Position numbers and translations under genes: made by a program. This document shows positions 17,872 to 61,872 of a stretch of DNA of 64,000 bases, in pieces. Positions within the stretch are counted from its first letter, which is position 1. Each line of letters begins with the position of its first letter. Below the pieces are notes generated by a model. That model had not been told where the DNA came from, searched no databases, and saw nothing but the letters and a program-made list of their open reading frames with translations. Source of the stretch: Minisyncoccota bacterium (lineage in GTDB: Bacteria > Patescibacteriota > Minisyncoccia > Phycocordibacterales > JAGLPS01); contig JAGLPS010000002.1 in NCBI GenBank assembly GCA_023137185.1, positions 47,458-111,457 on the forward strand, read 5' to 3'.

Positions 17872-18010
17872 CCTATTAGAAATAGGAAACCTCTGGGTTT
17901 CCGTCAGTATTGTTAAAACTGGTAAGTAATCGACTCATAAAGTGATATTGTAAAGCGTGTCTTAAGTTCATAACGTTGTGACCTGCCTGCGGTAGGCAGG
18001 CTTCTAACGG
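17872..18010 (-). promoter_or_regulatory. Conserved promoter + leader module (copy 2), filling the infC-rpmI intergenic region and ending at the rpmI ATG
   Basis: The reverse complement is ~90% identical to 55580-55720, including the palindrome CCTGCCTACCGCAGGCAGG, TTACAAT, ATGAGTCGA and the GGAAACC....GGTTTCC hairpin. Confidence 0.55.
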
Positions 18011-18016
18011 GACGCT

Positions 18017-25988: not shown

Positions 25989-26001
25989 AAAAATTTTTCT
26001 G

Positions 26002-26075
26002 TGCGAGTACCAGGACTCGAACCTGGAACCGCGGAGGTATAAGCTCCGTGCTCTAACCAATTGAGCTATACTCGC
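26002..26075 (-). tRNA. tRNA-Ile, anticodon UAU (decodes AUA)
   Basis: The minus strand reads GCGAGTA-TA-GCTC..GAGC-A-CGGAG-CTTATAC-CTCCG-CGGTT-CCAGG-TTCGAGT-CCTGG-TACTCGC-A, a full cloverleaf; the anticodon loop CUUAUAC gives UAU. Confidence 0.8.
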
Positions 26076-37937: not shown

Positions 37938-38456
37938 TACTTTTATTATACAAAAAAACACCGAAACGAAAAACTAAAAAACTTGTAAATTGCCTACAAA
38001 TTGCTAACTAGCTCATTCTTTACTCTATGAGCTACGACGGTTAGATATTTTGGTAAGTTTTACAACAATCTCACATTCTTAAGAATGTGAGATTGTTGTA
38101 TTAAAATCCTCGAGCGTGCACTTGTTGTGGACTTGAAAAACCTCGGTGTAGCGCGCAAATGGCATTCGGTGTCGCTTTGCGACGCTCCACATCTCGCCGT
38201 TTCGGGCGAAAGTGCAACTTGGCGGAGGAGGTGGGATTCGGTCACAAATAATTTTCTGCTGAAAATTTTCGCGACTCTTACAGAGTCTGTACACCTTTTG
38301 GACAATTCAGAAATTGTCTCAAAAGGTCTTGCGAAATGCTCCCAGCATTTCTCACCCGACTCGGCGCCGTCGCGCCTCCGTCTTTCGAATCCCTCTCTCA
38401 CAACCAAAGCTGCTAATTTTTGATACCTATATAAACGGTATCAAAATTATCAGTGC

Positions 38457-39333: not shown

Positions 39334-40452
39334 GTGACTAATTTCTTTAAAGGATTTTTTGGAGGGAAAAAGGAAAGCGTTATTGGAATTGATATCGGAA
39401 CTTCTGCTATCAAAGTTGTGCAAATCTCACGCAAGGGACAGAAGGTTGTTCTTGACACGTATGGGGCTCTTGCACTCGGACCCTACGTCGATATGGAAAT
39501 TGGGAGGGCAACGAATCTCTCTGTCGAGAAAACAGTTGAAGCGCTTGGAGATGTATTGAAAGAGGCGAATATAACAACACGACAATGCGGCATTGCGATT
39601 CCTTTTGCCTCTAGTTTAATGACCGTTATTGAAATGCCTGATGTAAGCGTCGAGCAACTGGTCGGAATGATTCCTATCGAAGCGCGAAAATATATTCCAG
39701 TTCCTATCTCCGAAGTAATGCTTGACTGGTCAGTCATTCCTTCAGATGAATATACCGCAACAGGAAAAGAAACTACGGATGTTTCAAAAACTACTGAGAC
39801 TGTAAAAAAGAAAAAAGATGTGCTTATTGTTGCGATTCACAAAGAGATGGTCGCAAAATATCAAGATATTGTAAAAAAAACGGATCTCAACGCGAGTTTT
39901 TTTGAAATTGAATTATTTAGCACTATGAGAAGCGTGCTTGAGCAGGAAAATGTTCCTGTCGGGGTTTTGGATATGGGAGCGGCATCTACTAAACTTTATG
40001 TGATTGAACGAGGAGCTGTTAGAGTTTCTCATACAGTGAATCGTGGTTCCCAGGACGTTACCCTTGCGATTTCGAAATCTCTCGGGATCCCCGTCAATCA
40101 GGCGGAAGTAATAAAGAGGGACCCTAATTTGGGCGGACACAGTGATGATAAAGGAGTATTGGAAGCAGTATCGCTAGTCACAGACCATATTTTTTCAGAA
40201 GCAAGTCGCGTCTTTTTTAGTTACCAGAAGAAACATCAGAAGAATATAAGCAAAATTATTCTTGTGGGTGGGGGTATTGCGCTCGCGGGACTCACAGACA
40301 AGGCTCGTAAAGCGCTTAAGATAGAAGTAGAAAAAGGCGACCCTTTTTCAAAAGTAGAGGCCCCCGCTTTTTTGGACGAGGTTCTTAAGAAAGTGGGTCC
40401 AGAATTTGCCGTTGCGGTTGGGGTTGCCCTCCGTCGTCTGCAAGAAGTTTGA
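39334..40452 (+). CDS. pilM: Type IV pilus assembly ATPase-like protein PilM
   Basis: VIGIDIGTSAIKVV actin-like fold; 372 aa; precedes pilN/pilO. Confidence 0.85.
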   Translation: MTNFFKGFFGGKKESVIGIDIGTSAIKVVQISRKGQKVVLDTYGALALGPYVDMEIGRATNLSVEKTVEALGDVLKEANITTRQCGIAIPFASSLMTVIEMPDVSVEQLVGMIPIEARKYIPVPISEVMLDWSVIPSDEYTATGKETTDVSKTTETVKKKKDVLIVAIHKEMVAKYQDIVKKTDLNASFFEIELFSTMRSVLEQENVPVGVLDMGAASTKLYVIERGAVRVSHTVNRGSQDVTLAISKSLGIPVNQAEVIKRDPNLGGHSDDKGVLEAVSLVTDHIFSEASRVFFSYQKKHQKNISKIILVGGGIALAGLTDKARKALKIEVEKGDPFSKVEAPAFLDEVLKKVGPEFAVAVGVALRRLQEV

Positions 40453-40519
40453 CTCTGTAGTAGATTTTGGCATTGCCCGCGGGGCATATTAAGATGTTAT
40501 GCCAAAATTCACTACGGGG
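40453..40519. mobile_element. MITE-like nested-hairpin element (TIR CTCTGTAGTAGATTTTGGCAT / ATGCCAAAATTCACTACGGGG) between pilM and pilN
   Basis: 21-bp inverted ends, inner hairpin TGCCCCGCGGGGCA-like; followed by an extended -10 TGGTATAAT at ~40541. Confidence 0.5.
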
Positions 40520-40560
40520 TTTGATACTCCTCAAAATATCGTGGTATAATTTCAAAAGAA

Positions 40561-54747: not shown

Positions 54748-54955
54748 TAGAATGACCATATTTTGTTGCTGAAATTTTCTTCTTATGTTATCTTTTTAAT
54801 AAAGTTCTTTGTTTTTGAAGAAAGGAGGACAACGTAATGATGATAAGACTTGGTACTGCAGGCGGATTGTCTAAGTAGCCGGGATCGTCCGCGCACTCTT
54901 TCACTTCTTTTGACCAAACGATTTGGTCAAGCGCGAAAAAGCGCAAAAAGGTTTG

Positions 54956-54990
54956 TAGCCCGTTTTCTTGATAGAAACGGGCTATTTTTT
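54956..54990 (+). terminator. Terminator hairpin AGCCCGTTTTCTTGATAGAAACGGGCT + TTTTTT after plsC
   Basis: 10-bp stem plus T-run. Confidence 0.55.
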
Positions 54991-54999
54991 AACAAGCGA

Positions 55000-55260
55000 G
55001 CCTGCCTACCGTAGGCAGGTCGAAGTCAAACTATAGGTCAATACCGCCCCGCCTACGGCGGGGCAAATGAACGAGCAGAGCGAGTACCAGCATTACTCTG
55101 CGGTCTTTGCCGCAGGGTGTATATTTCCTATCGAGGCACTACTATCGAGGTTCAACCTCGATAGTAGTGCCTCGATAGTTAGTTATGTATGCTAAAATTT
55201 TTCTAATAAGGTTTACCCAGCACTACTTTTTTTCAGGAAAAAAGTAGTGCTGGGTTTACA
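55000..55260. repeat. Cluster of four long perfect palindromes (REP-like)
   Basis: GCCTGCCTACCGTAGGCAGG (55000-55021), GCCCCGCCTACGGCGGGGC (55044-55064), CTATCGAGGCACTACTATCGAGG-TTCAA-CCTCGATAGTAGTGCCTCGATAG (55129-55179, 23-bp stem) and CCCAGCACTACTTTTTT-N-AAAAAAGTAGTGCTGGG (55211-55260). Confidence 0.7.
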
Positions 55261-55290
55261 GAGCCTCTCTTTATTCGTACACTTAATTCT

Positions 55291-55575
55291 ATGATTACCC
55301 GTACAGACATCGAGAAACTCGCTTCTCTCGCCCGTATCAGACTTTCTGAAAAAGAAAAAAGCCTCTTTCCAGAAGAAATAAACTCTGTTCTTGGCTATGT
55401 TGAGCAAATTAAAAACGCGGATGCTAGTAACGCGAAGGCTCTCCAAAAGGAGACGGTTTATAATGTGATGCGGGAAGATATAAACCCTGATGAAAGCGGT
55501 GTGCATACGAAAGATATCGTAGACGAATTTCCGAAGAAAGAAGGTAATTACCTAAAGGTAAAAAATATTCTCTGA
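55291..55575 (+). CDS. gatC: Asp/Glu-tRNA(Asn/Gln) amidotransferase subunit C
   Basis: MITRTDIEKLASLARIRLSEKEKSLF...VLGYVEQI. Confidence 0.85.
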   Translation: MITRTDIEKLASLARIRLSEKEKSLFPEEINSVLGYVEQIKNADASNAKALQKETVYNVMREDINPDESGVHTKDIVDEFPKKEGNYLKVKNIL

Positions 55576-55579
55576 CTTA

Positions 55580-55720
55580 TCCCGTTAGAAGCCTGCCTAC
55601 CGCAGGCAGGTCATAACGTTATGAACTTAAAACACGCATTACAATATCACTTTATGAGTCGACTACTTAACAATTTTAATAACAATGACGGAAACCTCTG
55701 GGTTTCTTACTTCTAATGGG
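55580..55720 (+). promoter_or_regulatory. Conserved promoter + leader module (copy 3), ending exactly at the gatA ATG
   Basis: CCCGTTAGAAGCCTGCCTACCGCAGGCAGGTCATAACGTTATGAACTT..TTACAAT..ATGAGTCGA..GGAAACCTCTGGGTTTC..TTCTAATGGG-ATG. Confidence 0.55.
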
Positions 55721-58904: not shown

Positions 58905-58978
58905 GCGGGAGTAGCTCAACTGGTTAGAGCATCCGCCTGTCACGCGGAAGGTTGCGGGTTCGAGTCCCGTCTCTCGCG
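58905..58978 (+). tRNA. tRNA-Asp, anticodon GUC
   Basis: GCGGGAG-TA-GCTC..GAGC-ATCCGC-CTGTCAC-GCGGA..GCGGG-TTCGAGT-CCCGT-CTCTCGC-G; anticodon loop CUGUCAC. Confidence 0.9.
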
Positions 58979-58985
58979 CAAACGC

Positions 58986-59020
58986 TAAAACAGGATACCT
59001 TTTTGGTATCCTGTTTGCGT
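58986..59020 (+). terminator. Hairpin AAACAGGATACC-TTTTT-GGTATCCTGTTT after tRNA-Asp
   Basis: 12-bp perfect stem. Confidence 0.6.
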
Positions 59021-59149: not shown

Positions 59150-59174
59150 GTGACCGAGTCCCGTCTCTCGCGCA
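59150..59174 (+). repeat. Direct repeat of the tRNA-Asp 3' end (copy 2), att-like
   Basis: GTGACCGAGTCCCGTCTCTCGCGCA; the last 19 nt are identical to tRNA-Asp 58960-58978. Confidence 0.7.
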
Positions 59175-59346
59175 AAAGTAAAAATGCTTAGATTTTCTAA
59201 TCTAGGCATTTTTACTTTCTAGTGTGATTTGTGGCGGGACTCGAACGACGGAGATGCCATTTCAGAAAGGTTTGGGAAATCTTTCTGAAATGAATCCTGC
59301 GTCGAGTCGGGGTCGGCAGTACTTTTCGCGAAGCGAATTAGTAACT

Positions 59347-59371
59347 GTGACCGAGTCCCGTCTCTCGCGCA
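59347..59371 (+). repeat. Direct repeat of the tRNA-Asp 3' end (copy 3), att-like
   Basis: GTGACCGAGTCCCGTCTCTCGCGCA, identical to copy 2; spacing of 194 and 197 bp between the three copies. Confidence 0.7.
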
Positions 59372-59523
59372 TACGATTTTATACTAAAAAATCTCTCAAT
59401 GGGAGGGGTTTTCTATCTCTAACCGAGAGGAAACTTTTATTGACATATTTATACAAATATGTTATTATTAATACTAGAATGCTTTGGTATTTTGAAAAAC
59501 CCTTCAAAAAAAAGGAGTTGAAA

Positions 59524-61802: not shown

Positions 61803-61872
61803 CACATTTTGAGGCTTTTATTTGGAAGCCGAGCTTCCAAGTTAGAGCTTCCAAGTTACTTTGTGGACTTTC
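61803..61872 (+). other. Second copy of the TTACACCACA-hairpin-CTTCCAAGTT element
   Basis: ATTACACCACATTTTGAGG..TTGGAAGCCGAGCTTCCAAGTTAGAGCTTCCAAGTTAC; compare 3797-3858. Confidence 0.4.

Follow-up and report, generated by a model that had tools for sequence, protein, structure and literature searches.

The region studied is the 543-nt spacer between a plsC-like acyltransferase gene (PF01553, 54046-54747) and gatC (PF02686, 55291-55575) in a bacterium of the Candidate Phyla Radiation (CPR)/Patescibacteria, the genome of which has a G+C content of about 40%. It lies within a 64-kb stretch of a Minisyncoccota contig, here called the window, to which all positions refer; 81 kb of the source genome and 13 kb per relative were available for comparison. 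Two syntenic relatives, L157 and L159, were reached via GatA (72-73% identical), the nearest PlsC homolog, the same strain aside, being only 40% identical; both keep the gene order VWA-ligA-plsC-gatC-gatA. Comparison with these relatives divides the spacer into three parts, namely a leader with its terminator (54815-54990), a hairpin patch (54991-55254) and the gatC promoter (55255-55290). A preliminary description of this DNA had reported a dense cluster of palindromes at 54900-55270, and this cluster was confirmed.

On the + strand, H1 (54910-54930, TTGACCAAAcgaTTTGGTCAA) forms a perfect 9-bp stem and is part of the conserved leader. The terminator (TAGCCCGTTT..AAACGGGCTA, 54956-54984) is a perfect 10-bp stem followed by TTTTTT (T-run 54985-54990). 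The patch itself holds H2 (CCTGCCTACcGTAGGCAGG / CCTGCCTACCGTAGGCAGG), a 19-nt hairpin with a GC-rich 9-bp stem at 55001-55019 (54999-55021 with its AG and TC flanks), H3 (GCCCCGCCtacGGCGGGGC, 55046-55064) with an 8-bp all-GC stem, and H4 (ACTCTGCGGTctttGCCGCAGGGT, 55095-55118), which has 10 pairs including two G-T and is followed by a T-rich tail; these three are likewise given on the + strand. H5 and H6 are strand-neutral. H5 is a 51-nt perfect palindrome (55128-55178) with a 25-bp stem and a 1-nt loop, and H6 (55215-55255) has a perfect 18-bp stem and a 5-nt loop, belonging to an element at 55210-55259 with a 36-nt core at 55217-55252. Both had been noticed before as stems of 23 bp (55129-55179) and 17 bp (55211-55260); the hairpins are real, but the lengths and positions had to be revised, the coordinates given earlier being 1-4 nt off.

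Six perfect stems of at least 8 bp (25, 18, 10, 9, 9 and 8 bp) were counted in 54900-55270, against a mean of 0.08 in 2000 dinucleotide shuffles of the same segment, the longest stem in any shuffle being 12 bp. The DNA fold of 54991-55262 reached -79.3 kcal/mol, compared with -30.4 +/- 3.5 kcal/mol for shuffled sequences (z = -14.1). With five of the 31 perfect stems of at least 9 bp found in 64 kb, 54900-55270 is the densest 371-nt stretch of the window, and just 0.8% of sliding windows contain three or more such stems. The 31 stems are mostly unique, A/T-flanked and terminator-like; long perfect hairpins are a habit of the source genome at large. No Rfam family matched anywhere in the spacer at gathering thresholds, and a permissive scan of the spacer returned only microRNA-like hairpin noise and weak attenuator-like matches.

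Palindromes of this kind might be artefacts of assembly or sequencing. Contigs from other samples do break inside H2 and H5, and all nine genomes in which the flanked H2 sequence was found (see below) are metagenome-assembled genomes (MAGs). Such an origin is nevertheless barely credible. The window sequence is identical across five independent sample assemblies (ENA ZHAN22-2; including SAMN18200496, scaffold_70, 94 kb) and the palindromes are therefore not made by the assembly; the same organism also has an NCBI MAG, filed under Candidatus Pacebacteria/Paceibacterota, whose GatA (MCK5059641.1) is 100% identical to that of the window. Moreover, matches to the H2 family come from a wide range of studies, assemblers and years, one of them lying on a closed 2.5-Mb chromosome (CP070644.1), and scrambled controls are nearly absent. 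The broken contigs themselves, L003 and L004, start at window positions 55010 and 55174, that is, within H2 and within H5, indicating that these palindromes break short-read assemblies.

The hairpin patch is lineage-specific. Its 264 nt (H2-H6, 54991-55254) have no counterpart in L157 or L159: in L159 only about 20 nt separate the terminator from gatC, and in L157 its place is taken by about 187 nt that are unrelated in sequence and poor in hairpins. None of the patch palindromes was found in the 13 kb available of either relative. Both relatives keep the leader and the terminator, and L157 keeps the promoter too.

The conserved leader or small-RNA-like unit (54815-54990, +) consists of a strong Shine-Dalgarno (SD) box (GAAAGGAGG, 54820-54828) common to all three genomes, a mini-open reading frame (mini-ORF, 54837-54878, product MMIRLGTAGGLSK followed by the stop), H1, a GCGC hairpin and the intrinsic terminator. 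The spacers of L157 and L159 show the same order of elements and share the box AGTAGCCG. The mini-ORF varies between 13 and 25 codons and ends in [TS][AS]GG.[SP][KE]-stop in the three genomes, each of which also has two hairpins at equivalent sites and a strong terminator; the position of the terminator is conserved in both relatives, and in a consensus fold of the leader seven pairs are kept despite changes on both sides. This unit upstream of gatC may be an attenuator-type leader or a small RNA and is a candidate for either. Its counterparts lie at 5255-5485 in L157 and at 5105-5385 in L159, where it directly precedes gatC without a separate promoter. The SD box is able to pair with a downstream CCTTCC-like box.

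The promoter-like site of gatC (55255-55290, +) has TTTACA (55255-60) and TACACT (55278-83) separated by 17 nt, with 7 nt to the ATG at 55291, and hexamers, spacing and ATG distance are the same in L157. Since the promoter lies 7 nt before the ATG, the gatC transcript is probably leaderless or nearly so. The patch, being located downstream of a conserved terminator and upstream of a conserved gatC promoter, is probably little transcribed, and the role in mRNA stabilisation that had been suggested for the palindromes fits this position poorly.

H2 belongs to a family of 19-mers. The sequence CCTGCCTACCGCAGGCAGG occurs exactly at 17982-18000 (-) and 55592-55610 (+), and H2 is its T-variant, with C changed to T at position 12; six strand-matches to the 19-mer in the window compare with 0.01 expected. 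The earlier claim of one palindrome at three loci thus held for 17982-18000 and, after a shift by one from 55593-55611, for the second site, while the copy in the cluster is one base different. In the 81 kb the family comprises three exact or near-exact copies and one degenerate copy. Both exact copies lie in modules that resemble each other: the one at 55592-55610 lies immediately inward of the left inverted repeat that bounds the gatC-gatA module (55581-55720, +), and that at 17982-18000 has the same place in the infC-rpmI module (17872-18011, -). A third module copy between rplW and rplB (2541-2661, +) is without exactly these 19 nt. In the alignment of the modules a 19-column gap of the rplB copy falls where the two other copies bear the hairpin, and this copy represents an empty site. 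The full-length GIY-YIG cassette of L159, which has the same termini as the modules, is also without the 19-nt hairpin. Because only 23 nt (AG, the 19-mer and TC) are common to the modules and H2, the 19-nt hairpin is a unit of its own. Accordingly, the palindrome does lie inside the leader modules, as had been stated, though as a 19-nt insertion and not as an integral part of them, given the empty module copy. As far as can be judged by alignment, the 19-mer is an insertion into the modules, and related sequences exist with and without it.

The modules hosting the 19-mer are 140 nt long and resemble MITEs (transposable elements of the miniature inverted-repeat type), with 11-nt terminal inverted repeats CCCGTTAGAAG / CTTCTAAyrGG, and their right end abuts the ATG of gatA, rpmI and rplB. 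A 31-codon ORF (MNLKHALQYHFMSRLL...VSYF, then stop) is open in all three copies. In L159 their termini also enclose a small GIY-YIG gene that is located between gatC and gatA (5710-5990) and the product of which is 49% identical to a GIY-YIG protein of the window (5734-6009). A GIY-YIG cassette with a habit of inserting between essential genes looks like the source from which the modules were derived by loss of the ORF. The similarity of the module interiors to the L159 cassette is not significant, the termini alone matching, and the module core gave zero matches in IMG/VR. In the gatA copy the apex of the 3' hairpin is inverted, AACCTCTGGGTT (55690-55706) being the exact reverse complement of AACCCAGAGGTT (17885-17902, 2631-2648), which is a signature of intrastrand template switching at a hairpin.

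The 19-mer is not confined to this genome. Species-representative genomes were scanned with the flanked 23-mer (AG + 19-mer + TC), phyla being taken from record titles, and the 23-mer was found once each in nine genomes of six phyla, where a uniform expectation would give about 0.03. They are three Bacteroidota, two Ignavibacteria, a gammaproteobacterium, an Acidobacteriota, a closed Nitrospiraceae chromosome and a Saccharibacteria genome. In several of the nine, the sequence without the 19 nt is a simple hairpin, the loop or apex of which is where the insert sits, and in a Chitinophagales genome (L008) two adjacent tandem paralogous units differ by exactly the 19-nt insert. Metagenomes of the Joint Genome Institute (JGI) yielded at least 121 matches to the bare 19-mer; among those listed, the C-variant accounts for 119 of 121, though the T-variant would pair better. 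In IMG/VR eight matches were obtained on seven viral contigs; three scrambles preserving stem, loop length and composition gave 0, 1 and 0. The collected loci contain 13 extra near-copies beyond the primary matches (0.009 expected), so that host genomes often bear several 19-mers. Long open frames hold 19% of the 139 matches considered (among those listed), compared with a background of 75%, and 18 of 118 matches (again among those listed, self-nesting included) are nested in an outer stem of at least 6 bp, where 2.3 would be expected. In the metagenomes these outer stems are often loops of CGTC-tagged repetitive extragenic palindromes (REPs) of the form GGATTCCCGC..GCGGGAATGAC.

No exact 19-mer was present in the plasmids of cultured bacteria in PLSDB, and the string was not found in the literature searched. 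A resemblance to the 16S EUB338 region was dismissed as coincidence. When the spacer and the module were compared by BLAST with about 0.8 Mb of collected loci, nothing beyond chance-level 12-16-mers was detected, and an apparent link of CCAGCACTAC to the Chitinophagales locus L008 was likewise put down to chance.

The palindromes had been called REP-like or similar to bacterial interspersed mosaic elements (BIMEs). This description is apt in that they are short, extragenic and recurring. REPs and REPINs occur with REP-associated tyrosine transposases (RAYTs) in GTAG- and CGTC-tagged superfamilies (PMC3733652, PMC3116915); by definition, the stem of a REP has on one side of its foot a GTAG (or CGTC) that is conserved and unpaired (PMC3733652), and CGTC-tagged REPs were described by Di Nocera et al. 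(PMC3733652). REPs are imperfect palindromes of 20-40 nt outside genes, number tens to hundreds per genome and typically flank the RAYT gene, and in a BIME the REPs of a single family alternate in orientation, with conserved linker motifs between them. The 81 kb contain a few copies of each family of palindromes. H2 (19-23 nt) and the H5 core (21 nt) have REP size and are both intergenic, and the palindromes share with REPs, BIMEs and REPINs that they are GC-rich, clustered in long spacers and located mainly downstream of genes. The palindromes might be genuine REPs or BIMEs, set in motion by a RAYT (a Y1 HUH transposase) the gene of which lies elsewhere in the genome, and might serve as mRNA 3' stabilisers or as gyrase or integration host factor sites. 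Besides their short, extragenic and recurring nature, the frequent nesting of metagenomic 19-mers in CGTC-type REP loops speaks for this possibility, and insertion of REPs within host palindromes has documented precedent (PMC3733652). CGTC REPs, too, have no known transposase. We nevertheless regard the REP/BIME reading as unlikely. H2, H5 and H6 have neither a GTAG or CGTC foot tag nor a CCA tail, GTAG occurring only at the apex of the T-variant. The patch is a mosaic of five different palindromes with non-repeated linkers, in which unrelated palindromes are mixed and alternating REP pairs or inverted REP doublets are missing. The search for a RAYT that had been proposed turned up no gene of the Y1/RAYT type in the 81 kb, whether called as a gene or present as a larger ORF; the called genes of L001, L022, L155 and L156 and 10 further ORFs gave no Y1_Tnp (PF01797-type) match. 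Clustering of neighbouring genes at 137 19-mer loci gave no recurrent family, small GIY-YIG genes being found at three loci, too few to count. In addition, the location after a terminator and before a promoter speaks against mRNA stabilisation.

A second palindrome that recurs is H5. Four copies of the 9-mer CTATCGAGG, spaced at exactly 14 nt and oriented -> -> <- <-, make up the palindrome, and its inner 21-nt core (TATCGAGGTTcAACCTCGATA; family consensus TATCGAGGTTsAACCTCGATA) belongs to a dispersed family. Three copies of the core are present in the 81 kb, two of them self-nested; the two others lie 12 and 16 kb downstream, just outside the window, in L155. The copy at window-equivalent 67502-67546 is self-nested with a 22-bp stem and 11-nt spacing and is located between convergent genes, and that at 71460-71480 is a single unit 114 nt upstream of a dCMP deaminase gene. 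Confinement to this locus, which would have pointed to random local structure, does not apply to the 19-mer and the H5 core. Zero matches were obtained in IMG/VR for the H5 core and for H6.

H6 is flanked by a 7-nt direct repeat, GGTTTAC (55210-16, 55253-59), and none of the other 43 perfect hairpins in the 81 kb (44 in all) is bordered by direct repeats of at least 5 nt; H2 and H5 show no target duplication. Removal of the 36-nt core and one repeat leaves GGTTTACA, which can be compared with GGTTCTTTACA at the same place in L157, where the palindrome is absent. H6 therefore looks like an insertion with a target-site duplication exactly at the -35 box. For the remaining hairpins of the patch the evidence of relationship is weak. 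H3 shares the word pattern CCyGCC-TAC..GGCrGG with H2, and the stem of H4 reuses the central 19-mer words CTGCGGT/CCGCAG, a resemblance to the 19-mer that may have little weight. The 17-mer of H3 gave 11 matches in IMG/VR, about chance level, and its family relationship to H2 is thus unproven.

The architecture of H5 and H6 could also be that of operators regulating gatCAB, with a dimer of dimers bound to the four 9-mers of H5 and with H6 occluding the -35 box. The exact 14-nt spacing of the four CTATCGAGG sites, the 3' arm of H6 ending in the -35 hexamer and the position of one other H5-core copy 114 nt upstream of a gene would agree with this. We consider it unlikely, however, because the second H5-family copy is spaced at 11 nt instead of 14 nt and is bracketed by convergent genes with their 3' ends towards it, because relatives with the same promoter or gene order do without such sites, and because perfect arms of 18-25 bp go far beyond what an operator needs.

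Composition of the stems bears on whether the hairpins act as RNA. Not a single G-T pair is found in the 60 bp of stem of H2, H3, H5 and H6; H4 alone has G-T pairs and, owing to the two of them, folds only as + strand. H4 may be an RNA terminator on that strand, as predicted. Stems free of G-T fit young palindromes arising at the DNA level and not RNA hairpins refined by selection. A T-run directly follows the stem only at the terminator (54956-54990), is weak for H4 and H5, and is missing at H2, H3 and H6; by score, H4 and H5 are weakly terminator-like. Alternatively, the hairpins could have arisen where they now stand, as stacked terminators, back-up or bidirectional, by which gatCAB is insulated from upstream transcription, their recurrence reflecting common terminator sequences. 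In favour of such a stack, the genome uses many long perfect hairpins as terminators, many of them A/T-flanked (the 31 stems mentioned above), H4 and H5 have terminator-like scores, and the G-T pairs of H4 work in + strand RNA only. Lack of T-runs at three of the hairpins makes it unlikely, as do identical 19-mers across phyla, an exact 19-nt indel in paralogs and a 7-nt flanking duplication, none of which would be expected; furthermore, L159 does without any such stack.

Taken together, we hold it to be somewhat more probable than an even chance that the patch consists of non-autonomous palindromic micro-elements which accumulated in a terminator-to-promoter gap. Three layers would be superimposed in the spacer. 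The first would be the conserved leader-like unit, with its mini-ORF and hairpins, ending in the intrinsic terminator (54956-54990), and the second the conserved, probably leaderless gatC promoter (55255-55283). Between them, successive insertion of tiny non-coding palindromic elements would have built the 264-nt patch (54991-55254). H2 would insert without duplicating its target, and would often do so at the loop or apex of a pre-existing hairpin. H5 would be a 21-nt unit nested within itself, H6 would be a palindrome of 36 nt that duplicated 7 bp of its target, and H3 and H4 would be GC-rich hairpins derived from related sequence words. Palindromic elements would pile up in the gap because insertions are tolerated there, and a like pattern is seen in the fusA-tuf spacer of the same genome. 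DNA-level mobility and an enzyme acting in trans are presumed in this scheme, as would be any insulating effect; the likeliest present effect may be incidental, in the form of barriers to read-through into gatCAB and an obstacle beside the -35 box.

Several points weigh against this account of accumulated micro-elements. No transposase or other mobilising enzyme was identified in the 81 kb, and copy numbers are small (3-4 per family), as 81 kb of the genome were covered. H3, H4 and H6 are single-copy in the sequence available, and the target duplication of H6 is a single instance. No site that is filled in some members of the population and empty in others was seen, all five sample assemblies being identical. 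The four even 9-mers of H5 and the overlap of H6 with the -35 hexamer also fit protein-binding sites. Finally, the base after the 19-mer is C in about 80 of the 121 metagenome matches listed and otherwise variable, and the flanks in this genome are AG and TC; as flanks differ between this genome and the metagenomes, the 19-mer unit and its target are not sharply defined.

Besides the 19-mer and the H5 core, at least three more low-copy dispersed palindrome-bearing repeats are present in the genome. A second hairpin cluster, in the 623-nt fusA-tuf spacer (L156 5326-5948, window-equivalent -1483 to -861), combines two of these families with a degenerate 19-mer. The spacer contains TTGGAAGCtcgGCTTCCAA, other members of whose family are at 61822 and 70126, together with a perfect palindrome of 26 nt, a stem of 17 bp that recurs at 6072-6109, and the degenerate 19-mer CTTGCCTACCGCAGGTAGA. 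A 97-nt palindrome-bearing element recurs there in inverted orientation; its other copy lies in the region 3858-6230, where the ribosomal protein operon is split between rplB and rpsS by two pilin-like genes with small partner ORFs and by a GIY-YIG gene, which the element follows.

The closest described phenomenon appears to be the small dispersed repeats (SDRs) of heterocyst-forming cyanobacteria; a REP-like nature holds in a loose sense only. SDRs, reported by Elhai and colleagues in 2008, are hairpin units of about 20-27 nt in non-coding DNA. They were reportedly recognised as insertions because similar sequences lack them, are often nested inside other repeats or hairpins, were described within one cyanobacterial lineage, and reportedly have no encoded protein and no obvious target duplication. 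Like them, the 19-mer is a small hairpin unit that is dispersed in non-coding DNA, is present in some related sequences and missing from others, and is nested; unlike them, it is the same letter for letter in at least six phyla and in many habitats, and the sequences are unrelated. MITEs, which have terminal inverted repeats and a target-site duplication but no coding capacity, are resembled by H6 in its palindromic body with a 7-bp direct repeat that looks like such a duplication, and by the 140-nt modules in their terminal inverted repeats of 11 nt, which are found here also on a protein-coding GIY-YIG parent cassette in a relative. H2 and H5, on the other hand, are far below the usual 50-500 nt and lack a target duplication, H6 is single-copy, and the modules have a GIY-YIG gene cassette as their parent and not an insertion sequence transposase. 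GC-rich palindromic inserts that accumulate in the spacers of AT-rich genomes are also known as yeast mitochondrial GC clusters and Rickettsia palindromic elements (RPEs). RPEs are of the CGTC class, the class that often hosts the 19-mer in metagenomes, and often lie in frame within genes. GC clusters and RPEs differ from the present palindromes in hosts, sequences and sizes, and the 19-mer avoids long ORFs.

Further repeats were observed elsewhere in this DNA. A 40-nt perfect palindrome without a loop (TACAACAATCTCACATTCTTAAGAATGTGAGATTGTTGTA, 38061-38100) is unique in the window and lies near tRNA-Ser. At 40452-40520 and 6017-6133 inverted repeats span the sequence of pilin genes that encodes the start codon and the prepilin leader (ATGCCAAAATTCACTACGGGG = MPKFTTG), and the pilin gene is adjoined upstream by its own 5' end in an inverted copy. 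Downstream of tRNA-Asp, its last approximately 20 nt (CGAGTCCCGTCTCTCGCGCA) recur two times, with a spacing of about 195 nt (58961-58990, 59155-59184, 59352-59381), and these repeats may have been left behind by integrated elements as parts of their attachment sites; tRNAs, hairpins and ORFs without a Pfam match abound in the surrounding 58-62 kb region. Positions 17350-19550 of L155 (window-equivalent 70340-72540), just outside the window, are repeat-rich, with a 244-nt repeat in copies 91% identical, GCGTAATTACG palindromes in three places, a T5orf172/GIY-YIG-like gene and a DNA methylase, and are probably a mobile-element region. A tRNA-Ile with the anticodon TAT is predicted at 26001-26075 (-).

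A wider reading of the 19-nt hairpin can be put forward only tentatively, as one that may well be wrong: it would be a micro-insertion complete in itself and cosmopolitan in distribution, one of the smallest known units of DNA that propagate, which spreads within and between bacterial phyla and inserts without target duplication into hairpin loops and spacers by means of a common host function or an unrecognised enzyme. The plsC-gatC patch would then be a local graveyard of such elements, comprising H2, the words of H3 and H4, the self-nesting H5, and H6. In practical terms, hairpins of this type break metagenome assemblies, create spurious ORFs and can pass for regulatory RNA structures or REPs. 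A hairpin of 19 nt that is common to distant phyla letter for letter raises the question of what copies 19 nt across phyla without target duplication. If the interpretation is true, even a reduced CPR genome would hold a small ecosystem of sub-MITE palindromic inserts, which would gather in terminator-to-promoter gaps and inside other mobile modules.

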